A stretch of DNA of 64,000 nucleotides from a virus. This document shows positions 479 through 51,262 of this stretch, in pieces. Location of the stretch: IMG/VR virus record IMGVR_UViG_3300034066_002191; one strand, given 5' to 3'. Within the stretch, counting starts at the first letter, position 1. The number at the start of each line of letters is the position of its first letter. The notes below the pieces were generated by a model, which did not search any database, was not told where the DNA came from, and saw only the letters and a program-made list of their open reading frames with translations. Both the position numbers and the translations under genes were made by a program.

Positions 479-3400
479 TTACGCTGTTGGAGTCATGGCA
501 AGTATTAATGTATTTGTTATTACATCTGGATTTGATGCTGCACTATCTTTTGCTATGTCTGGTCTAGATAATGGCATTGGAGCAAACTGTGCCTTTGCGA
601 TTGATTGAGACTGTGTTGGGGGCTTAATATTTGATTGCGTTCTAAATATGTCCCACCAAGGTTTTTCTTCTTTTGAGTTTAGCTTCGGTTTATTTTTATT
701 CTTTTCTTCTAATAATTTTTGATTGAATTCTGCATTTGTTATTTTATTCCCTACTAAATTTGTCCAACTACCGTCAGCACTTTGTGTCCATGGCATTCCT
801 CCAATTGTAGCAGTTCTTCGCTTTGGTGGTTGATTTGGTGATGGAGTCTGTGGTGGTGGTTGATTTGGAAGCGGCGTATTTTTTCCTTTTGTATCGTAGG
901 CACCTCTAGTGAATCCCACATGCAAATGATCATAATGATTCCCATCATATTGTCCACGAGTAACTGATGGCTGCCCAGCAAACCAATATCCATAATGATC
1001 ATATATTAGAGCTTTAATTCCATATGAATTTCTGTTATTATATAAATGAACAAACAAACTAGTAAGTCTTGCAATTTCTCCTTTATTTTGTGGTGGTTGT
1101 CCTCTATGATCTGTAACATCAAATGCATTTGTAGCATGATCGGCACTGGCATGACCACCAACACGAGAATTACCTTTTGGATTAAAACCTCCAGGATTCG
1201 GTTCAAATTTTGGCCAGGCATTATTAGTAAAATATTTATTTTCTCCAACGGTAAATCCTTGTTGTAGAATCCATTTTCCTACTTGTATTAAATTCCCACC
1301 AGCAGCAGCAACAGTTCCAGTGACTATGCCCCTGTTTATTTCGGCTGGTCTCAATTGACCAGCTTTAAATTTTCCAATAGTTGCTCCCCTAGGCTCAAAT
1401 CCAAATGCATGTCCCGCTCTTCTTACTTCAGTTTCGTCAGCCAAATGATCATTTTTATCTTCAAATGATATAGATCTAAAATTATCTCTTGGTCCAACAA
1501 AATCTCTGGCGGATCTTTGTCTTGTTGTATCTAATAATGCTGCCGCAGCTGCTTCTAATTGGGCTTGATTTCTTCCTTGACTTTGTACATACTCAATTGC
1601 ACTTTGTTTATTTGTTATTTTTGACCATGCTGCGACTCCTCCCTTTTCTCTAACAGGTTGGAATTGTGTCGGATTTAAAATTGTATTTCTAATACTTCCT
1701 CCAGTTTTCCAAGGATCTCCCGGCATCGCAACTCTATTATAAATTGCTTGGGCAACATCTGCGTATCCTTGTGGACTTATTCCTTCAAATAATGCTGCGG
1801 TTGCGAGCAACCAAAAATCTGGACTATCACTACTAACTATTATGTCTCCAGCTTCTCCGAGACTTGGTGATATTCTTCCTTCAGGCTCTTCTCCTTTTAA
1901 ACCCATCTCTCTTCTAAGACTCTGGAATATTTCATTTGTTCTAGAGTTCAAGGCATTCTGGAAGGAGCGAGATATTGCCGCACCTAGTTGTTCTCCGATT
2001 GATGGCCCAGTTCTCAAAGTTCTTGATGCTGGTATAACTCCACCTTCTGCTGCAGCGACAATCGATCTCTGAATTTGATTAACTTCTTTTGATGATTGTG
2101 CAGCTATTGCATTATCGATTAATGTGGCAAAGTTATTTTTAATTTCTAGTCCAAGTAAAGGATCTGGTTTTTGTCCTAAAGGTAAATTTGATGTCGCAAC
2201 CATGATTCCACCAAAAAGTGGATCACGATTTTTATTCATGATTTCTGAAATATTTTTTAATGCCCTTAATGGGTTTTTCTTTCCTGGTTTTTTTGGCGAT
2301 GCAAATACTTTTTTAATTTGCTTCAATCCACCAACATTTTGTCCTGGCTGTGGAGCTTGTCTTCTTGATCTTTGTAATCTCTTTGTTCTTCTAGGTGTTG
2401 TCCTAGAAATAGTTCTACGAATTGGTCTTCCGCCTCTTGTTATCGCACCGCCAGCTGCTTTTTTCTGTACCTTTTCTCCCTGACCTTGCATTGATGTCGT
2501 GGCATCAAATAACGATCTACCAACAATGTCACCAAGTAAACCACCCCAAATAGGTCCACCAAAAGGAATCAATGCAGGAAAACTACCTAATGCTGCACCA
2601 ACTGCTGCACCAACTGCACCAGCAGCAGCTCGATCTGGTCTCTCTTTGAATATCAAGGTACTAATTAAAAAGTCAGCGATCGGACCAATTATAGGAACCT
2701 TTCCTAATATCTTTGCTCCTCCTTTTCCTAATAGTTTTAATGATGCACGCTGCTGTACATTACCTAAACCTCGTGCTCCTATATTGCCTGCCGTTCTCCC
2801 TTTCCCAGCAAGTCCACCAGTGGGAATTGTCCTCTGAGAAAATCTTTGCCTGACAGCACCTAAAGCTTGAGCTGGAGTTGATCCACGATTAATTTTATCT
2901 TGATATAATCGTGCCGCATCAAAGCCATACTTTTTGGTAATTGCCTCTTGTGCACGAGTTTGATTAAAATATTGTGACAATCTAGTGGGAGATTGTCCTC
3001 GTGGACCTACCCCAGGTCTAGGACTAATTCTTGTTGGTAATTTTTTTCCGCCACCGCCAATAGTGCCGGAACCAGCAATTGCAAGTCCAACAATAATAGC
3101 AGTATTTAAAAATTTGTTTAATGTGGAAGATAATTCATCAAACTGTTTTTCAAATTTTTCTCCGCCAACTTGCTTTGCGAGTGCTCTTACTTTGTCATAT
3201 TGTTCATATCCAAGATCAATTGCATCAACAAAATTTTTAAATACAGAACCAACAAAGTTTTCAGTAAATTTTATAAATGGATCTATGAACTTTAATGTAC
3301 TTAGTATTTTAGGGAGAAACTTTACCAACTTAGTAAAGGCAAATCCCATAAAAGTATAAAGAATGAAGTTACGGATTGCATCCAAAAATCCAGTTTTAGG

Positions 3401-3685
3401 CAATGCCCCTTGTAAATATTTTAATGGATTAATAAGTTTTGGTGTTTCTGCTTGTTTTTCTTGTTGTTGCCTCGTTCGTGTGATTCCTTGTCTTCTTTGT
3501 TGTTCCGTTTGTTGTCTCTGTAAAGAAGCATTAGATTTAACTAAAGTTTCAATTTTCCTTAAACTTTCATATATCGATTTTAATACACCAAGTGCAGTAT
3601 TTCCAGAAGAAACAGGAGAGTTCAGTGTTACTCTTCTTGTTCTCGGTATTAATGGAGTAGTAGGTGTTGCAGTTGGTGTTGCCAT
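479..3685 (-). CDS. Large baseplate hub/tail-associated protein with SleB-like hydrolase and C-terminal M15-like peptidase motifs
   Basis: 1068 aa; FEG..QGYADVAQAIYNR (Hydrolase_2/SleB-like); H-x6-D and HYDHLHV Zn-peptidase-like motifs; downstream of gp26/gp51. Confidence 0.6.
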   Translation of the reverse strand: MATPTATPTTPLIPRTRRVTLNSPVSSGNTALGVLKSIYESLRKIETLVKSNASLQRQQTEQQRRQGITRTRQQQEKQAETPKLINPLKYLQGALPKTGFLDAIRNFILYTFMGFAFTKLVKFLPKILSTLKFIDPFIKFTENFVGSVFKNFVDAIDLGYEQYDKVRALAKQVGGEKFEKQFDELSSTLNKFLNTAIIVGLAIAGSGTIGGGGKKLPTRISPRPGVGPRGQSPTRLSQYFNQTRAQEAITKKYGFDAARLYQDKINRGSTPAQALGAVRQRFSQRTIPTGGLAGKGRTAGNIGARGLGNVQQRASLKLLGKGGAKILGKVPIIGPIADFLISTLIFKERPDRAAAGAVGAAVGAALGSFPALIPFGGPIWGGLLGDIVGRSLFDATTSMQGQGEKVQKKAAGGAITRGGRPIRRTISRTTPRRTKRLQRSRRQAPQPGQNVGGLKQIKKVFASPKKPGKKNPLRALKNISEIMNKNRDPLFGGIMVATSNLPLGQKPDPLLGLEIKNNFATLIDNAIAAQSSKEVNQIQRSIVAAAEGGVIPASRTLRTGPSIGEQLGAAISRSFQNALNSRTNEIFQSLRREMGLKGEEPEGRISPSLGEAGDIIVSSDSPDFWLLATAALFEGISPQGYADVAQAIYNRVAMPGDPWKTGGSIRNTILNPTQFQPVREKGGVAAWSKITNKQSAIEYVQSQGRNQAQLEAAAAALLDTTRQRSARDFVGPRDNFRSISFEDKNDHLADETEVRRAGHAFGFEPRGATIGKFKAGQLRPAEINRGIVTGTVAAAGGNLIQVGKWILQQGFTVGENKYFTNNAWPKFEPNPGGFNPKGNSRVGGHASADHATNAFDVTDHRGQPPQNKGEIARLTSLFVHLYNNRNSYGIKALIYDHYGYWFAGQPSVTRGQYDGNHYDHLHVGFTRGAYDTKGKNTPLPNQPPPQTPSPNQPPKRRTATIGGMPWTQSADGSWTNLVGNKITNAEFNQKLLEEKNKNKPKLNSKEEKPWWDIFRTQSNIKPPTQSQSIAKAQFAPMPLSRPDIAKDSAASNPDVITNTLILAMTPTA

Positions 3686-3686
3686 A

Positions 3687-6116
3687 TTATGCTAACCCAT
3701 ATGCTCTAAGATTATCTTCACGATCTCCTAATGGAGATTTAGTGGAGAAAGTTGGAACCTGCGTTCCTCCGGTTGAAGTGGGAGGTGTAGATCTTGCAGC
3801 CGCAACTGGAATTTCTGTAAATGTAACTGTTCCTTGTCTTGCAACTCTTGGTCCTGGTTGTTTGATATCTGGAGAAGTAGGAACAAACATTGCATCAGAT
3901 TTTTTGATTCCAGTAAACTGCAATAAACTATCTATAGATCTCTCAAAAAAACTTTTTGGTTTTTGTTTTGGTTTTGGTGGAGCTGGTGGCGCTTGAAATT
4001 GGACTGGAATTGGAGCAGGTTTATTTCCATAGTTTCCTTGATTTACAAAGAAATTTGCTTGTGGATTTCTTAATACATCTCCCTCTTCAGGCTTCATATA
4101 TTTTTGTTGACTTACTCCATAAAATGCAGTTCTTGTCCCAATAAATCTCTGTGCCTGTTGCTGTAATTTGACATTCTTCAGTGCTTTTTCTGTATCTGAT
4201 ATTTCCTTGAGAGCCGACTGCATATTCCAACCATATTTTTTCCCTTTTGTGGAATTCATAACAGCAATGGCAGCTGATTTTCTATCATTAATATTTGACC
4301 AATCTTTCATGTTGTCAAAAATTGGTTGGTATTGCTTCGGTGCAAGAATAATATCTTTGATTGAATTTTTAGATTGATTGAAATTTGCCCCATATTTGTT
4401 GGATGCCTGAAGTCGATTATAAATTGACTGAGCCACATCAGCTCTTCCTTGTGGGGTCGTATCTTCTAATGCTGAAATTGCAAGGAGCGAGTTATAATCT
4501 GCTGCACTCAATTTTGGTCCTACTACTCCACCATCTTTTGCTAATTGAATGTTGTTTACAAATTTTGGTTTTCTTCCGGACACAAATTGATACAAATTCA
4601 ATCCTGTTTGGCTTTCTACTTTCTTTGCGTCTTCAGGAGTCAATACAATTTCTCCTGGTCTTGCTGCAACTAATTGTGTATCAGGTCCAGCACCAGTAAT
4701 ATTCAATCCAGAATCACGAGTAATTTGCTGACTTCCATCAGTTGCTATCTGTTCTATTCCCATAGAACTTGATTGATTTTTAGGTATCATTCCACCACTT
4801 CTAAATGCATAAGATGATGGAAGTGGTTGAGGTTTTGTTCTTTGATTTTCTTGTTTCTTTGGTTCTTCTGGCTTTAACTTTCTTGTCTGATCTGGCCCTT
4901 CTTTTTGTTTCAATAGTTGATATCCACCATACGCTGCAGCAACTGCAGCACCAGTATATAAAGAACGAACTCCAAATGTTTTCAATAGTTTTAATATACC
5001 AGGTATTCCAATTGCACGAATATATTTGGTAAGATTGATTGCTAGACCGACTGTAGATCTTATAAACTTACCAAATCTTGTCCCAAATAATATAAAAGTC
5101 CCGAGTATTGCTGGCCACCAATCTTTAAAGAATCGTTTTAAGGATTCAATTTTTTCTTTATTCTTTGGATCCGAAATCCATTTCACTAGTTCAGTGAAAG
5201 CCTTTCCTAGTAGAGTATAAAATATAAAATCAAAAATACGATCCAATATACCTTTTACTGGAGATATAACCTTTTCAAATGCGGCATAAGTTTTTTTTGC
5301 AGAAGATTCTAGAGCACTTTCTGCTTCTTGTCTCTTTTTTTGTTCTTCTGTAATTCTTGTGGTTCTTTGTGTTCTTATTGTAGTTGCTCTTTGGGAAGAA
5401 AGAGAAGCTAATATATTGTCTACTGATTTTTGTATCTTTAATAGTATTTGTATGACTGGGGCATCTCCTCCACCTGAGAGGGCACTAGAAGCTCCTGTAG
5501 GACCTATTGGAGGCTGATTTCCACCACCAGTAACGGCACGAGATCTTTGTGTTATTGCTCTGCCAATGTTTACATTACGAGTTCTGAATCTAGGCTGAGA
5601 TGGTTGAACAAACCTTCTTGCTGATCTTGGGGTTGGCTGTCTTCTTTGTGGTTGTCTTCCTGCTCTTTGTATTTCTCCTAAAAGTTCTTCGATTTTGTCC
5701 TTAGTTTCCTCATCTTCATCGTCCTGGTTATCTTGTTTTTGTTGGGCAGGAGGAGTTGGTGTAGTTCTTCTAGGAGGAGTTGGTTTTTTATTTGGTGCTT
5801 TTGGTGGTCTTTTTGATGCTGTTGGTTTTTTATTTTTCTTCTGTTCTTTTTGATATGCTTCTACTTGTTTTAATACTTTATCATGGACTTTACCAAAGTC
5901 CCCTTCCAAAGAATCTTCTTCAAATTCGTCATATTCATTTTCTGATATGGGAAACTCATCTCCTGGATTTGTTTCCACATACCATTTTACAACATAATAA
6001 TATAGTTCAGGATCTGCAGTCTCATTGATTCCTAAGTTTTTGGCAAAAATTATGGCATAGTTTTTTGACCTATTTCTAGGAAATTTAATAGTATCAATAG
6101 ACCATTTCTTTGCCAT
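3687..6116 (-). CDS. Large baseplate hub/tail-associated protein with SleB-like cell-wall hydrolase domain
   Basis: 809 aa; LED..QGRADVAQSIYNR...PKQYQP; paralogous architecture to 479..3685. Confidence 0.6.
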   Translation of the reverse strand: MAKKWSIDTIKFPRNRSKNYAIIFAKNLGINETADPELYYYVVKWYVETNPGDEFPISENEYDEFEEDSLEGDFGKVHDKVLKQVEAYQKEQKKNKKPTASKRPPKAPNKKPTPPRRTTPTPPAQQKQDNQDDEDEETKDKIEELLGEIQRAGRQPQRRQPTPRSARRFVQPSQPRFRTRNVNIGRAITQRSRAVTGGGNQPPIGPTGASSALSGGGDAPVIQILLKIQKSVDNILASLSSQRATTIRTQRTTRITEEQKKRQEAESALESSAKKTYAAFEKVISPVKGILDRIFDFIFYTLLGKAFTELVKWISDPKNKEKIESLKRFFKDWWPAILGTFILFGTRFGKFIRSTVGLAINLTKYIRAIGIPGILKLLKTFGVRSLYTGAAVAAAYGGYQLLKQKEGPDQTRKLKPEEPKKQENQRTKPQPLPSSYAFRSGGMIPKNQSSSMGIEQIATDGSQQITRDSGLNITGAGPDTQLVAARPGEIVLTPEDAKKVESQTGLNLYQFVSGRKPKFVNNIQLAKDGGVVGPKLSAADYNSLLAISALEDTTPQGRADVAQSIYNRLQASNKYGANFNQSKNSIKDIILAPKQYQPIFDNMKDWSNINDRKSAAIAVMNSTKGKKYGWNMQSALKEISDTEKALKNVKLQQQAQRFIGTRTAFYGVSQQKYMKPEEGDVLRNPQANFFVNQGNYGNKPAPIPVQFQAPPAPPKPKQKPKSFFERSIDSLLQFTGIKKSDAMFVPTSPDIKQPGPRVARQGTVTFTEIPVAAARSTPPTSTGGTQVPTFSTKSPLGDREDNLRAYGLA

Positions 6117-16842: not shown

Positions 16843-16871
16843 TAGCTTAGCTCCTTTACTGTGTGTAAATT

Positions 16872-16922
16872 TGCGTTGCTTCTCCTTAAAGGATACTTCC
16901 GCTGGGCATTCCAGTCAACGAT
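16872..16922 (-). ncRNA. Glutamine riboswitch (glnA motif, glutamine-I class)
   Basis: AUCGUUG-A-CUGG/CCAG hairpin-CGGAAGUA-UCCU/AGGA hairpin-GAAGCAACGC; three-way junction with E-loop matches the glnA consensus. Confidence 0.85.
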
Positions 16923-28507: not shown

Positions 28508-28630
28508 TTATCCCCAGTAAATCTGACCAAGAGTGAATAAAACAAACACAAGAACTGTGAATACCATCATACCTACACCTGCCCAGATTACCCAGGGTTC
28601 CATAGGATGATGTTGATTATTATGAGACAT
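28508..28630 (-). CDS. Single-TM micro-protein (40 aa)
   Basis: MSHNNQHHPMEPWVIWAGVGMMVFTVLVFVLFTLGQIYWG; overlaps the end of the nuclease gene. Confidence 0.5.
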   Translation of the reverse strand: MSHNNQHHPMEPWVIWAGVGMMVFTVLVFVLFTLGQIYWG

Positions 28631-29060
28631 TTTGTTGGTGCTTTTGTAGATATTTAATCATTTCTTCCAAAAGATTTGTATTATCCCCTACCTGCCCCAA
28701 CACCATATTACAATTTCTACAAAGCAATTGACGAACTTTTCCGGTTTTATGGTCGTGGTCTACACAAAGTTTTTTCCACTTACCGTCACCATCAGATTTA
28801 CAAATAGCGCAAACACCACTTTGTTCTTCATACATTTTGGTGTGTTCATCAAGAGTAATACCATAAAGTCTTTTCAGGTCATTATTTTTAGTTCTTTCTG
28901 GATTTTCCTGATGTCTTGATTTCACTCTTACTTTATCGCATTCCTTACAAGATGAATGTCGAACTCCAGTTTTTTTATTACGGACATAAAACTCAGTAGT
29001 AAGTTTTTTTTCACCGCAGGACATACAGGTTCTATACAGGTCAGAGTATAGTTTAGTCAT
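28620..29060 (-). CDS. Free-standing homing endonuclease, Endonuclease VII-domain type (F-CphI-like)
   Basis: CMSC/CKEC zinc knuckle, YGIT, CAIC, VDHDHKTGKVRQLLC.NCN; immediately downstream of psbA, as F-CphI is in S-PM2. Confidence 0.85.
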   Translation of the reverse strand: MTKLYSDLYRTCMSCGEKKLTTEFYVRNKKTGVRHSSCKECDKVRVKSRHQENPERTKNNDLKRLYGITLDEHTKMYEEQSGVCAICKSDGDGKWKKLCVDHDHKTGKVRQLLCRNCNMVLGQVGDNTNLLEEMIKYLQKHQQNVS

Positions 29061-29130: not shown

Positions 29131-31798
29131 TCACCCGATGGTTGGTGCAGTCAAGGCAACAGGAGTGTTGCTAGCAGCAGCAAGATCAAGTGGGAAGTTG
29201 TGAGCATTCCTTGTGTTTTAACCTTTGTCGCCAAAGGGAGCGGACTATATCATCACTCATAAGAGTGTCGGACGCTAGTGGCGTATTACGGATGAAGCGT
29301 CATCCACCGCCTAGTCTCTGAACCTTCCTTACACGCTTGCAAGGCTTGGCTGCTGATTGTCTACGAGAGAGTTCCAGCAATTCATCCGATTTAACGAGCG
29401 CCATGCGTTCACAAAACGCTCGTGCATTACCTCCATTCCTAGTCCTGCTCTTGTCAATACATCAGCCCAAGTGTTAATCACATGACCTTGATTGTCTTGA
29501 ATGGACTGGTTGAAATTAAATCCGTTCAGGTTAAATGCCATAGTACTAACACCAAGGGCAGTAAACCAAATACCAACTACTGGCCAAGCGGCAAGGAAGA
29601 AGTGTAGTGAACGGGAGTTGTTAAAGGACGCATATTGGAAAATAAGTCGTCCGAAGTAACCGTGAGCCAATTATCCAAAAGTTTCCTTAAGGGTTGGACT
29701 ATATCTTCACCTATTAAAGGTGCTGGGCGCTCTTGCCTGTTATTAAGAAGACTGAACTTCTCAGGTAGTCTCTGAACCTTTCCTAGATGTATCTAGGACT
29801 TGGATGCTGATTGCCATATCCATAAAGGACTTAGGTTCCCAGCAGTTCACCCAGTTTAGCGTGACCCGCTCTGTCAAGCCACGATGTTATAAGTCTCTTC
29901 TTCTTGACCGAACTTGTAACCATAATTCTGTGACTCGTTCTCAGTGGTTTCACGAACCAGTGAAGAAGTAACCAGAGAACCGTGCATAGCACTGAACAGA
30001 GAACCACCGAAGACACCAGCAACACCCATCATATGAAAAGGGTGCATAAGAATGTTGTGCTCTGCTTGGAATACAAGCATGTAGTTGAAAGTTCCGCTGA
30101 TACCTAGAGGCATTGCATCACTAAAACTACCTTGACCAAAAGGATAGACCAGGAACACAGCACTCGCAGCAGCAACAGGTGCGCTGTAAGCAACACAGAT
30201 CCAAGGACGCATACCTAGACGGTAGGAGAGTTCCCATTCACGACCCATATAGGCATAGATGCCGATGAGGAAGTGAAATACAACGAGTTGGAAAGGACCA
30301 CCGTTGTAAAGCCATTCATCAAGACTTGCTGCATCCCAAATGTTGTATAGGTGCAGACCAATTGCATTAGAACTTGGTACTACGGCACCACTGATGCCTT
30401 CCATGAAATCCACTCTTCATCTTCATGAGGTACCCAACCTTCTAAAAATGAGGAGACCATAGACCTAAGTGAATAATGGGGAAATCTTGTACTTTTCGCC
30501 CACGCTTTCGCAGTAGGCTTTGGTTTACCAGAAGAAATCCAAATTTCATAAATTTCATCTGCGACCAACCAAGGTTTTATATTTTTACCCTGTTTCCACT
30601 TAGAAACTTTTTTAGCAACTTCGGGATTTTTCATTGGATTACTATCGCCAGATAGTATTGGGAGATTATTAGAGAGAGAAACTAATTTACTTTTCTCCAC
30701 ATTTCTAGTCCAATGATTATCACCAATCGCACCATTCCATTTTTCTGGATTAGTTTTTCTTGGGTGAGTTTTTCCTTTTAAATGTTCCCAATATTGGGGA
30801 TTTTTATGTCTGGCGTGATTTTCGCCAGTTCCCCAACCTTGAGGTTCATTTGATAGATTTAAACAACCATCATTTCCATAGTGCAAAGAGAGCATTTCTC
30901 TTTCAGTTCCTCTAAGATTGGTATCTTCATTAAATATTTCTAGGAATACCCAATCATCAGGATACTTTTTTAGAGAATTATGGAAGTGGTCGTTTCCCTT
31001 AAACTTTCTATGGAATCTTTCTCTTTTTTGAGAGTCATTGCGGTAGAACCCCAATAATAATCACCGTTAGAAAGTCTTAGTGCTAAGTAAGTTATCATGG
31101 AAGTTAGACTATATCTTCATCCTTTATTAATTATATCATAAAGGAGTTGGGCGCTCAAGCCTGTTATTAAGAGGACTGAACCTCTCAGGTAGTCGTTGAA
31201 CCTTTCCAAAGTGTACTTTGGACTTGGCTGCTGATTGGGGTGGTCTTCCCTTTCCAGCAATTCACCCAATTTACTTTTCACGATTACTCGTGAATGACAC
31301 CATCTAGATGTTGTTGCCGTAAAGTAGAGAACCAGCAACTGGTTCACGAATCCCGTCGCATCATCTAACAAACAACCATATCTTTTGACTTAGGTTGCTT
31401 CTGTTGATTAGTCAACAGTAGATGTGTGGACTATATCTTCACCCTTCATAGAAGGAGCTGGGCACTTAAACCTGTTATTAAGAGGACTGAACCTCTCAGG
31501 TAGTCTCTGAACCTTCCTCAAGTGTACTTGAGGCTTGGCTGCTGATTGCCTTTCGGTTTCCAGCAATTCACCCAGTTTCGTCAATACTCTTACGAGTAAG
31601 GGACACCGATTAGTTAATGTCTACGGGAGGTGCTGCAATAAATGCAACAATAAAACAGATAGTTGCCGCAAGAAGGCAAGGAATCATAAGAACTCCGAAC
31701 CAACCAACATACAGCCTATTATCGGTTGAAGTTACCCAGGAACAGAATTGTTCCCAGAGGTTTTCGCCAGAACGGCGTGAAGCGATTGAAGCAGTCAT
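29131..31798 (-). CDS. psbA: Photosystem II D1 protein, five exons: join(31617..31798, 31308..31358, 29877..30396, 29416..29667, 29131..29208)
   Basis: Exons sum to 1083 nt = 360 aa + stop and restore PPVDI|DGIREP, YGNNI|ISG, NIVA|AHGYF and MHER|[10 protein letters not shown]. Confidence 0.96.
29209..29415 (-). mobile_element. Group I intron 4 of psbA (207 nt, no ORF), after Arg334 (standard D1 numbering)
   Basis: Exon ends in U, intron ends in G; P1 ACGAGCGU/GCGCUCGU, P10 GCAU/AUGC; P, Q, R, S elements (AAUUGCUGGAA, AAUCAGCAG, AGAGACUA, AUAUAGUC). Confidence 0.93.
29668..29876 (-). mobile_element. Group I intron 3 of psbA (209 nt, no ORF), after Ala250
   Basis: P1 CGUGGCU/GGUCACG, P10 GAGC/GCUC, terminal G; AGAGACUA and AAGAUAUAGUCC form P7. 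Confidence 0.93.
30380..31098 (-). pseudogene. Intron-encoded GIY-YIG-like homing endonuclease with a frameshift near 31024-31029
   Basis: The ATG 31098 frame gives [24 protein letters not shown]; the -1 frame continues KRERFH...[19 protein letters not shown]...CLN; one extra A gives a 239-aa ORF. Confidence 0.7.
30397..31307 (-). mobile_element. Group I intron 2 of psbA (911 nt), within the Ile77 codon; nuclease ORF in the P9 region
   Basis: P1 ACAU/GUGU, P10 GAUG/CAUC, terminal G at 30397; full P, Q, R, S core lies before the ORF. Confidence 0.92.
31359..31616 (-). mobile_element. Group I intron 1 of psbA (258 nt, no ORF), within the Ile60 codon
   Basis: P1 GACAU/GUGUC, P10 UCG/CGA, terminal G at 31359; P, Q, R, S elements present. 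Confidence 0.92.
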
Positions 31799-31811: not shown

Positions 31812-31925
31812 GTAAGTAAAAGTCCAGGGGGAACTGGATGGTTACAGTATGTCCCACACCACCCTCCAGTGTGGGTATGAGAGACTTTGTTTAACCTCCC
31901 CATAGGTCTCGGTTAGGAAGAGGAA
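31812..31925 (-). ncRNA. Structured psbA leader, PhotoRC-II-like RNA motif
   Basis: UAACC/GGUUA and GAGAC/GUCUC interleaved (pseudoknot-like), CCCACAC/GUGUGGG and UCCAG/CUGGA hairpins; location matches PhotoRC-II. Confidence 0.7.
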
Positions 31926-31964
31926 CAACATTAAGAACTTGTTACATTTCTTAACTTGTTGATG

Positions 31965-48195: not shown

Positions 48196-48617
48196 ATCAG
48201 GTCTGCCATGCACGCCACCAATTCTTTAACTGGAAATTGGAAACCAGGCGGGAGTAACCTCCACATCCGCACCAGTCGTCATATTTAATGTCCATACGAC
48301 GAGGACAATTTTGGGTCACAATTGGCTCCACCACTTAGTTTTGAGAAACTAAGAAAAGTTGTGCTAATTTACTCAATTCAATCATACTAAAGAAAACACA
48401 TAATAACAACATATCCCATAATCTAAATTTAATTACAAAAGGAACAATAAGTAGTCCCCCAATAAACTTCAATAATAGACCACTTTTGAAATCTCCCCAT
48501 AACATAATTTGATAACCAATAATGAGAAAAAGATTTCCAAGGTACCTAAGAACACTAGTTTTAGACATAAGGGAAGCACTCCGACCAGGGCAAGTTTTAA
48601 GTCATTCCGAGACTATT
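48196..48617 (-). ncRNA. manA-like structured RNA, apparently interrupted by an ORF
   Basis: 5' AGUCUCGGAAUGACU...CCCUGGUCGG block and two UUUC..UUUC..AAA..UGGYG pseudoknot modules upstream of the mannose/fucose genes; family recognised from memory. Confidence 0.55.
48335..48568 (-). CDS. Small multi-TM membrane protein
   Basis: 77 aa, three hydrophobic segments; stop lies within the structured RNA module. Confidence 0.6.
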   Translation of the reverse strand: MSKTSVLRYLGNLFLIIGYQIMLWGDFKSGLLLKFIGGLLIVPFVIKFRLWDMLLLCVFFSMIELSKLAQLFLVSQN

Positions 48618-49174: not shown

Positions 49175-49250
49175 TCCGGATACTCAGATTTGAACTGAGA
49201 TTATTCCTGCTCCCAAAGCAGGTGCCATGACCAAGTTAGGCGATATCCGG
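49175..49250 (-). tRNA. tRNA-Pro (UGG)
   Basis: Cloverleaf; CCTGC-TTTGGGA-GCAGG; TTCAAAT T-loop. Confidence 0.9.
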
Positions 49251-49709
49251 GAATTTAAGCTATTTATTATTTGAGTGTATGAACATAATACCAAAGATAG
49301 GAACCATTGTCAAGAGAAAACAAAGAGTTCCTAAAAATAGACTATTGTTTAATAGTGTTCCAATCAGATGTCCCATTCTTCTTTTTCGTCTTCATAAGTA
49401 CATGGTTCTTCAAAGAGTTCAATCATTTTTTGCTGTAGAACTCTGTGTTGCAATTTTTCTATATCTTCTTCTGTTAATTTAATCACTTATATTTGCCTTC
49501 TCCTCCAAGAAATTTTTCTAGTGGATCTTTTCTTGTTTTTGATATTTCCACGGCTCTTTTATAAAACATATTATCTGTATTACCAGAAGCTTCGAATGTG
49601 GCTTTTATTTTTAACCAATTTTCGTATGTCCGTTGATCCATTAGAATATATCATATTATCACTAATTATAATTGGTAAATTCTCAGTGTCAACCATATGT
49701 CACGAAATC

Positions 49710-50081
49710 TTAATAACCGTGATTGGTAATAGTTTTCGTGTACTTCCTTAAAATCTCTCCGGCTCTAGAATTTGCTTCATTTTCGCATTCACTTCCGGTT
49801 TCTCCGCTCATTTCTTTTCCACTTTGTTTTTGATGATAATGTACAAGTTCATGCGCAAGAGTCCTATAGACATCTAATGGATGTCTCTGTGAAGTCTGAA
49901 TTTTGATTTCGTCCGTGCCAAGATTAAAACAACCAAAAGTCTTATTGTCAATAGAGAACTTGGGGTCATCTATTACAATAACTTTTGGTAAAGTAGATAA
50001 CCCAAGTTCATCCTTGACAAAATTCATAAAATCTTTAACCTGAACTTTTTTTGATTCAGTAAGAAACTCTTTAAATCTCAT
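49710..50081 (-). CDS. HExxH zinc-metallopeptidase-like protein with an internal-protein-like N-terminus
   Basis: MRFKEFLTE..., RTLAHELVH, ENEAN; CATAAATA late promoter upstream. Confidence 0.65.
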   Translation of the reverse strand: MRFKEFLTESKKVQVKDFMNFVKDELGLSTLPKVIVIDDPKFSIDNKTFGCFNLGTDEIKIQTSQRHPLDVYRTLAHELVHYHQKQSGKEMSGETGSECENEANSRAGEILRKYTKTITNHGY

Positions 50082-50103
50082 GAGTTTTTTATGTATTTAT
50101 GAA

Positions 50104-50185
50104 CGGAGAATAATAGAATCGAACTATCAGGTGTTATCCCGGCATCGTTTTCAAGACGATTTACCGACCATCGGTGCTATTCTCC
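50104..50185 (-). tRNA. tRNA-Ser (UGA)
   Basis: ATCGT-CTTGAAA-ACGAT, long variable arm, G73. Confidence 0.88.
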
Positions 50186-50198
50186 ACATGTATGGGCA

Positions 50199-50450
50199 TT
50201 ACTTAACTTCAAAATCCAATCTACGAATTTTTCTTTGCCTTCTGGCCTCTTGCCACATAATATCTTCATTTGTCAAGACTCTAGTAGATTCTTTTTGATT
50301 ATAAGAATTCAACATTACTATCCTAGACAGATCTACTGCTGATATTTTATCGCCTTTGATGGTTGCCATATTTGAGCACCCACAAGATCTCGATTGCCCT
50401 GGATGTTCTGTCACCTCAGTATTGCATTCTTTGCATCTTATTTTTAACAT
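50199..50450 (-). CDS. Small Cys-rich (Zn-ribbon) hypothetical protein
   Basis: CKEC...CGC.N. Confidence 0.6.
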   Translation of the reverse strand: MLKIRCKECNTEVTEHPGQSRSCGCSNMATIKGDKISAVDLSRIVMLNSYNQKESTRVLTNEDIMWQEARRQRKIRRLDFEVK

Positions 50451-50544
50451 TTTGATTCATTATGAATTTATTTGATTTTATTATTTATCATTAAAAACTC
50501 ACCTTCTTATGGGGAAGGTGAGTGAAAAATGCTGTTAAGGATCA

Positions 50545-50615
50545 AGCGGGCAACGAGGATCGAACTCGTGACTGGAGCTTGGAAGGCTCAGATGTTACCG
50601 CTACACCATGCCCGC
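50545..50615 (-). tRNA. tRNA-Gly (UCC)
   Basis: GCGGGCA acceptor, CTTCCAA loop, U73. Confidence 0.92.
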
Positions 50616-50880
50616 AGTAATAAGGGAATTATACCCTATTTATGATTTTATGTCAAGGGTTCTTGTGTACTACTTCAAGATCAACACCAATAGCACGAAG
50701 CCAAGTATTTACATTTTCCATAAGAAATTCATCATCTGGATTTTCAAAGTTAATACGAATATCACGAATTGTGTCATGATTATCATTCCTAGAGGAATAA
50801 CTAAGATCATAAGAAACATTCAAAACTTGTTTTTTGGCCATAATTATTCAAAATACAATAAAGAGATAATTAATATCTCA

Positions 50881-50960
50881 TACTCGAAACAGGAATCGAA
50901 CCTGCAAGCCGAAGCGGTTGATTTTGAGTCAACTGTGTATACCAATTCCACCATTCGAGC
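50881..50960 (-). tRNA. tRNA-Leu (CAA)
   Basis: GTTGA-CTCAAAA-TCAAC, variable arm present. Confidence 0.9.
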
Positions 50961-51037
50961 TGGCGTCTCAGGTTGGATTCGAACCAACGGCTAACCGCTT
51001 AGAAGGCGGATACTCTATTCCACTGAGTTACTGAGAC
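50961..51037 (-). tRNA. tRNA-Arg (UCU), CCA encoded
   Basis: CCGC-CTTCTAA-GCGG; ends GCCA, abutting tRNA-Leu. Confidence 0.92.
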
Positions 51038-51075
51038 ATAAGACAATCATAAGACATTCATCTTAGATTGTCAAG

Positions 51076-51149
51076 TGGAAACACTGGGGATTGAACCCAG
51101 AACCTCACGCTTATAAGGCGTGTGCTCTAACCAGTTGAGCTATGTTTCC
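51076..51149 (-). tRNA. tRNA-Ile (UAU)
   Basis: CACGC-CTTATAA-GCGTG. Confidence 0.88.
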
Positions 51150-51187
51150 GATAGGGTAATTATACCATATAAAAGATGAAATGTCAA

Positions 51188-51262
51188 TACCCGTGGTGGG
51201 ACTCGAACCCACACTGTATAGATTTTAAGTCTACTGTCTGCTGCCAATTGGACTACACGGGC
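51188..51262 (-). tRNA. tRNA-Leu (UAA), short variable loop
   Basis: GTAGA-CTTAAAA-TCTAT, 5-nt variable region, A73. Confidence 0.85.

Follow-up and report, generated by a model that had tools for sequence, protein, structure and literature searches.

The psbA gene, coding for the D1 protein, serves as the standard marker for cyanophages, and among their auxiliary metabolic genes it has been studied best. Self-splicing group I introns, often accompanied by homing endonuclease genes, are familiar from other lytic phages, as in the td, nrdB and sunY genes of T4 and the orf142 gene of the Staphylococcus phage Twort, although these are other genes in other hosts; orf142 holds three group I introns, and to our knowledge three per gene is the published maximum for a phage. 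In phage psbA, introns have been treated in the literature as a single insertion of the type found in S-PM2 (PMC5931967, PMC5083919). F-CphI is a free-standing endonuclease which, as described for S-PM2 and S-BM4, cleaves psbA genes that lack the S-PM2 intron, at the site of that intron, and whose cutting the intron prevents (PMC6083498). The S-PM2 intron and F-CphI together were termed "collaborative homing" by Zeng, Bonocora and Shub (2009), as that work is described in PMC6083498. Chloroplast psbA can be far richer in introns. The gene of the green alga Oedogonium cardiacum has ten, at sites 179, 276, 384, 408, 525, 548, 570, 645, 754 and 898, the first of which (Oc.psbA.1, site 179) carries a LAGLIDADG gene in its L9 loop (PMC2442088), and four are cited for Chlamydomonas reinhardtii psbA (PMC5931967). 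Here we describe the psbA gene of IMG/VR virus record IMGVR_UViG_3300034066_002191, a stretch of 64,000 nucleotides (nt) referred to below as the window. The gene (31798..29131, minus strand, as are all window features below) is intact; four group I introns, with endonuclease companions, divide it into five exons. We consider it very likely that this cyanomyovirus psbA is functional and that mobile group I introns entered it on four occasions.

In a tblastn search of the window, five collinear pieces of psbA were matched by the intronless D1 of phage S-RIM2, and a spliced DNA alignment, an independent method, returned identical exon and intron lengths. Exon 1 (31617..31798, 182 nt) begins with Met1 and breaks off after the second base of the Ile61 codon. 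Exon 2 (31308..31358) is a micro-exon of 51 nt, which supplies the last base of that codon, breaks off in turn after the second base of the Ile78 codon, and encodes the standard residues Asp61 and Glu65. Exons 3 (29877..30396, 520 nt), 4 (29416..29667, 252 nt) and 5 (29131..29208, 78 nt, being 75 nt and TGA) were, like exons 1 and 2, placed by tblastn, a junction check and the spliced alignment. Between them lie intron 1 (31359..31616, 258 nt), intron 2 (30397..31307, 911 nt), intron 3 (29668..29876, 209 nt) and intron 4 (29209..29415, 207 nt), which are inserted at standard sites 179, 230, 750 and 1002, respectively; introns 1, 3 and 4 are without an open reading frame (ORF). The site numbers follow the plant and Mesostigma numbering, which equals the positions in the window gene itself (182, 233, 753 and 1005) minus 3, since the window D1 has one additional N-terminal residue. 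Introns account for 1585 of the 2668 nt of the gene (59%). Their exact removal restores the host gene, as the joined coding sequence (CDS) of 1083 nt has no internal stop and encodes a D1 of 360 amino acids (aa) that is 92% identical to the intronless D1 of S-RIM2. All 15 D1 residues that were checked are kept (D61, E65, Y161, D170, E189, H190, H198, H215, S264, H272, H332, E333, H337, D342 and A344). The 5' leader of the gene carries a PhotoRC-II RNA motif (31839..31933; RF01717, score 79.2 bits, cut-off 39), which was also found upstream of the intron-rich psbA genes of phage S-SRM01 and of contigs L053, L056 and L079. A first-pass annotation, made from the letters of this DNA, had called four introns of 258, 911, 209 and 207 nt, each preceded by U, ending in G and pairing with its own exons through P1 and P10, in a gene about 59% intron that encodes an exact 360-aa D1; these calls proved base-exact, and the four sites it gave are correct in the plant and Mesostigma numbering.

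Group I identity was tested with Rfam model RF00028 at a cut-off of 50 bits, E-values being computed for the whole window. As the first-pass annotation had proposed, the introns were scored against a group I model, and all four exceed the cut-off and match across its full length, with 67.4, 94.7 (on 31351-31086), 90.1 and 78.8 bits for introns 1 to 4 and E-values from 6e-15 to 4e-23. Paired elements P3 to P9 are visible in the alignments. Each of the four 5' exons ends in U and each of the four introns in G. The P1 helices of introns 1 to 4 measure 5, 4, 7 and 8 base pairs (bp), the U.G pair included in each, and the P10 helices 3, 4, 4 and 4 bp. In intron 1, P1 is formed by GACAU/GUGUC and P10 by CGA/UCG, in intron 2 by ACAU/GUGU and CAUC/GAUG, and the guides of introns 3 and 4 pair with their own exons only. 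An insertion of 34-36 nt lies between P7 and P3' in all four alignments, and this additional hairpin suggests that the window introns are of subgroup IA. All four introns are predicted to splice. It was reported that the S-PM2 intron, located at the site of window intron 4, splices during infection (PMC5931967). In our proposal each intron would fold alone after transcription. Its guide would form P1 with the last bases of the 5' exon that precedes it, the U.G pair marking the splice site, and P10 with the first bases of the 3' exon; the intron would then excise itself by the guanosine-initiated two-step reaction. Four such excisions would yield a messenger RNA for a normal 360-aa D1.

Relatives of the introns were sought with a 35-nt pattern taken from the P7 extension. 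The search returned 26 IMG/VR loci and 38 metagenome loci, mostly phage psbA genes with introns, and no exact match in prokaryote species genomes (one genome per species); nor was a cyanobacterial chromosomal source of the introns found in those prokaryote genomes. A tree of 69 intron cores groups the introns by insertion site, with support by the Shimodaira-Hasegawa-like approximate likelihood ratio test (SH-aLRT) of 97 for site 179 (18 rows), 100 for site 230 (4 rows) and 99 for site 750 (8 rows); sites 317 and 645 likewise form strongly supported groups. Core identities of 69-76% also link the lineages of sites 179, 230 and 750 with each other, a relationship that has weak support in the tree. 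Since the introns group by site, they represent homing lineages and not recent duplicates made within the window psbA, and each window intron is, judging from its core, a member of a site-specific homing lineage common to phages. We infer that the window introns are mobile, and propose that they would have arrived by homing from other phages, each lineage being tied to one site and present in many uncultured phages.

Among sequenced phages the reservoir isolate S-SRM01 (MW015081; PMC8557907) comes closest, and the window phage is a freshwater-type cyanophage. The site-750 and site-1002 introns of S-SRM01 are 95-99% identical to those of the window and the same endonuclease gene lies downstream, but S-SRM01 has three introns (276, 750 and 1002) compared with four, lacks those at sites 179 and 230, and carries an HNH gene in its first intron, at site 276. 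Its authors inferred one intron where three were found here (PMC8557907), and the record gives psbA as two partial D1 CDSs, an example of the fragmentation by gene callers that the first-pass annotation had expected. The annotation of psbA in phage S-CBWM1 (NC_048106) joins three pieces, marks two "group I intron" features and places a homing endonuclease within an intron; this gene differs from that of the window in that it has two introns, which lie elsewhere (about 645-649 and 1011) and have divergent cores. Uncultured phages from IMG/VR and from Joint Genome Institute (JGI) assemblies have the same kind of gene with the same intron families and carry more introns, none at exactly the four sites of the window. 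A complete phage-type psbA with seven group I introns and a PhotoRC-II leader was found in contig L056 (Ga0209500_10005845, 950-4347), in which exons of 275, 133, 148, 13, 321, 102, 17 and 71 nt give an intact D1 of 359 aa. Contig L041 (with L051 another of this kind) holds five complete introns and a sixth cut by the contig end, and L079 holds at least five, including the 179 and 230 pair with the 51-nt exon. In L084 the 51-nt exon is probably present as well, its site-179 intron being indicated by Rfam and pattern hits only.

Across the phage loci we counted about fifteen psbA insertion sites, ten of which are mapped to the base (179, 230, 276, 317, 548, 556, 645, 750, 1002 and 1011); the others (408, about 497, about 570, 890 and about 992) come from single or lower-confidence junctions. 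Four introns are more than we found in print for phage psbA (one in S-PM2, two in the S-CBWM1 record), but not more than public sequence holds. The first-pass annotation, which was right that the literature describes a single S-PM2-type insertion (PMC5931967, PMC5083919), had also called the gene unusually intron-saturated. This second view does not stand, as metagenomic phage contigs hold five to seven introns, S-SRM01 three and S-CBWM1 two. The window is an ordinary member of an under-described population and not an extreme one. In a limited literature search, no publication was found that describes a phage psbA with three to seven introns or a link of such genes to plastids.

In the core tree intron 1 nests among site-179 introns of 713-720 nt that bear a LAGLIDADG gene in the 3' (P9) loop; this gene is not present in the 258-nt window intron, and the alignment places a missing ORF segment of about 456 nt there. 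From this nesting, it appears that intron 1 descends from a site-179 intron with a LAGLIDADG gene and that the ORF was lost.

Intron 2 carries its own endonuclease gene. The first ~225 nt make up its ribozyme core. The ORF lies in the P9 loop, where a 9-bp helix (31103-31095 with 30406-30398) closes an ORF loop of ~690 nt and thereby brings the terminal G (30397) beside the core. The GIY-YIG homing endonuclease gene (30380..31098), recognized from the ORF listing and from relatives with PF01541, begins with an ATG (31098-31096) inside the P9 strand and crosses the 3' splice site to a TAG (30382-30380) in exon 3. The frame with the N-terminal motif and the long downstream frame meet at a run of six A (31029-31024), and a Pfam search with the long downstream frame alone gave no match. 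Relatives of this ORF, 74-83% identical, are intact at 239 aa, some with PF01541, and contig L003 has an uninterrupted endonuclease ORF within a site-230 intron. Because the relatives are intact, we judge that the window copy is broken, apparently by the loss of one base in the A-run, unless a sequencing error or slippage is involved. The ORF stops 15 nt into exon 3, in a frame different from that of psbA. The 3' strand of the P9 closing helix is made of the last ORF codons before the splice site and the 5' strand holds the ATG; with these codons lying in the helix strands, intron folding and endonuclease translation should be mutually exclusive. An example of how gene callers mishandle this arrangement is protein P0138, a 387-aa JGI gene call which fuses a D1 fragment (PF00124) to an endonuclease of the intron 2 type.

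Intron 3, which has no endonuclease, is identical to the intron of contig L020 and 95% identical to the same-site intron of S-SRM01. The core of intron 4 is 99% identical to the site-1002 intron of S-SRM01 and 74% identical to the S-PM2 intron, a value no higher than that between intron 4 and the other window introns, and the core tree separates the site-1002 introns of the window and S-SRM01 from a group formed by S-PM2, L042 and L075. Directly downstream of psbA lies an ORF of 146 aa for a free-standing homing endonuclease (28620..29060; Pfam Endonuclease_7, E = 5.7e-27) that is 89% identical to the F-CphI of S-PM2 over all 142 F-CphI residues and 83% identical to the S-SRM01 gene at the same position. 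Like S-PM2, the window thus has a group I intron inserted after standard nt 1002, where the Arg334 and Asn335 codons adjoin, with an F-CphI orthologue next to the gene, so that the pair of an intron at the target site and an endonuclease gene directly downstream is present. It differs from S-PM2, which has one psbA intron only, in having three further introns and in that its site-1002 intron is of another lineage and not an orthologue of the S-PM2 intron. By analogy with S-PM2, intron 4 probably protects its own genome from the F-CphI orthologue, and the latter would drive itself together with intron 4 into intron-less phages by collaborative homing. The F-CphI target site is occupied by two intron lineages in different phages, the window type and that of S-PM2 (L029), L042 and L075. 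Nine nt downstream of 1002, at site 1011, a third set of introns was found in S-CBWM1 and several contigs.

The first-pass annotation had set the four introns of the window beside the multi-intron psbA of green-algal chloroplasts, a comparison that the ten introns of Oedogonium uphold (PMC2442088). Like that of the window, the chloroplast psbA genes of Oedogonium (PMC2442088), Floydiella (PMC2997540) and Chlamydomonas reinhardtii hold several introns; those of the chloroplasts belong to group IA, and LAGLIDADG, HNH or GIY-YIG genes accompany them. Site 179 is common to Oedogonium and the window exactly. The chloroplast genes differ in that their host genome is that of a plastid and not of a phage, and in that the site-179 intron of the window is without an ORF. 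Phage sites 179, 276, 408, 548 and 645 fall on the same nucleotide as chloroplast sites, and about 497 and 570 do so approximately; the phage junctions at 276 are the least secure, with scores of 15-16 of 19. Sites 230, 750 and 1002 are absent from the published chloroplast psbA site lists that were compared. The coincidence with chloroplast sites proposed earlier for 179 and 750 therefore holds for the first (Oc.psbA.1) and fails for the second, the nearest listed site being 754 (PMC2442088).

Plastid-type contigs were found by way of their endonuclease proteins. In contig L045 (GCA_006365115.1, VFQT010000156.1, 7593-9384) a plastid-type psbA has a first exon of exactly 179 nt, and the intron that follows shares with window intron 1 a near-identical 5' end and guide and a core with 73% identity (blastn E = 3e-26); its core identities to the phage introns span 73-76%. 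Protein P0082, encoded in this gene, is 55% identical to the phage site-179 LAGLIDADG protein, and no relative of the plastid-type LAGLIDADG protein was found in the prokaryote species genomes. The L045 D1 is of the green-plastid type, with 353 aa and the beginning MTAILERRES. A cyanobacterial origin of L045 was considered, as psaA/psaB and a transporter gene lie nearby, and was rejected, since its D1 ranks with Protein Data Bank (PDB) chains of 352-353 aa, which we take to be those of plants and green algae, above chains of 360 aa, presumably cyanobacterial. A Pfam search of the ORFs neighbouring L045 in GCA_006365115.1 gave no match. Relatives of the phage site-276 HNH protein, 39-41% identical, were found in psbA introns of two further plastid-type contigs, with rpoB and psbT as neighbours. 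Contigs L086 and L087 (ENA ERZ25071726) have a plastid-type psbA with group I introns at sites common to phages, L087 holding at least seven introns in the available part of the gene.

When the plastid-type introns were compared with all phage introns, the best phage match was the same-site intron at 179 (74% over 221 nt, E = 3e-32), at 570 (73% over 186 nt, E = 7e-23) and, weakest of the three, at 276 (72% over 123 nt, E = 1.6e-12). The plastid introns at 408, 497 and 645 had no same-site best match among the phage introns, and our claim of shared lineages is thus limited to 179, 276 and 570. On these alignments window intron 1 is best placed as a member of a site-179 lineage common to green plastids, and the hint of relatedness between phage and plastid introns in the first-pass annotation is strengthened for intron 1 and extended to 570 and 276. 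We lean, with some reserve, towards the view that cyanophage and green-algal chloroplast psbA draw on one mobile group I intron pool. If so, homing introns would have been exchanged across domains between phages, or their cyanobacterial hosts, and algal plastids, and the intron-rich psbA genes of phages, in which as many as seven introns occur, would correspond on the prokaryote side to the intron-rich genes of plastids. This link is the interesting part of our results, as it offers a concrete, testable case of introns common to bacterial viruses and eukaryotic organelles, and the broader pattern merits a proper survey.

Several points weigh against a functional gene that was invaded four times. 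The four window junctions are predicted from sequence, the assignment to subgroup IA is suggested by an insertion in the Rfam alignments and not by formal classification, and the protection against F-CphI is argued from the position of intron 4 only, since its lineage is not that of the S-PM2 intron. Introns 1 and 2 have short P1 helices and nearly the same guides (GUGUC and GUGU), and the guide of intron 2 pairs over 5 bp with the end of exon 1 compared with 4 bp with its own exon 2, so that mis-splicing with skipping of exon 2 is conceivable. Joining of exon 1 to exon 3 would stay in frame and would remove 17 residues, including the standard Asp61 and Glu65. This opens the way to a decaying pseudogene in which at least one intron, likeliest one of the short-P1 introns 1 and 2, no longer splices accurately and little or no functional D1 is made, and the broken endonuclease gene of intron 2 does point to some decay in the locus. 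Nonetheless, loss of the endonuclease gene is usual for homing introns and says nothing about the ribozyme, the scores of all four ribozyme cores lie well over the cut-off for the family, the five exons are free of lesions with every checked D1 residue kept, and the 179 and 230 pair recurs with the 51-nt exon and conserved exons in the independent L079 and probably in L084; we regard a pseudogene as improbable. It is more improbable still that the gene is an assembly chimera in which introns of several co-occurring phage variants were stacked. Intron occupancy does differ among close phages in the same kinds of sample, where assemblers can mix variants, but the isolate S-SRM01 has introns 3 and 4 in one continuous stretch of 1211 nt that is 90% identical, introns 1 and 2 stand together in L079 and probably in L084, and several assemblies, made independently, yielded the contigs in which five to seven introns occur. 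With the same introns at the same sites in S-SRM01 (95-99%) and in many independent contigs, an assembly artefact can be ruled out.

Another proposal concerns why the introns are kept. Regulation might be their main role, with four splicing steps, each rate-limiting and sensitive to light or redox state, gating the D1 output of the phage, as was put forward for the one intron of S-PM2 and for Chlamydomonas psbA. A light-dependent ratio of spliced to unspliced transcripts was reported in S-PM2 and noted too for the psbA introns of Chlamydomonas (PMC5931967), and the conserved PhotoRC-II leader is kept in the window. However, site occupancy varies freely among related phages and endonuclease genes come and go, which fits better with selfish turnover than with a selected regulatory set. 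We consider such a role unlikely as the main reason for retention; it would be compatible with repeated invasion of a functional psbA by mobile introns, which we continue to prefer.

If many freshwater or estuarine phages carry three to seven psbA introns, gene callers and surveys by polymerase chain reaction would undercount or fragment the gene. Phage D1 output would then depend on several ribozyme reactions, and psbA would be a hot spot for the movement of homing endonucleases from phage to phage. Elsewhere in the window, six transfer RNA genes are clustered at 49175-51262, and two further RNA elements score above their Rfam cut-offs, namely a wcaG RNA motif at 48204-48308 (68 bits) and a glutamine riboswitch aptamer at 16870-16922 (46 bits).

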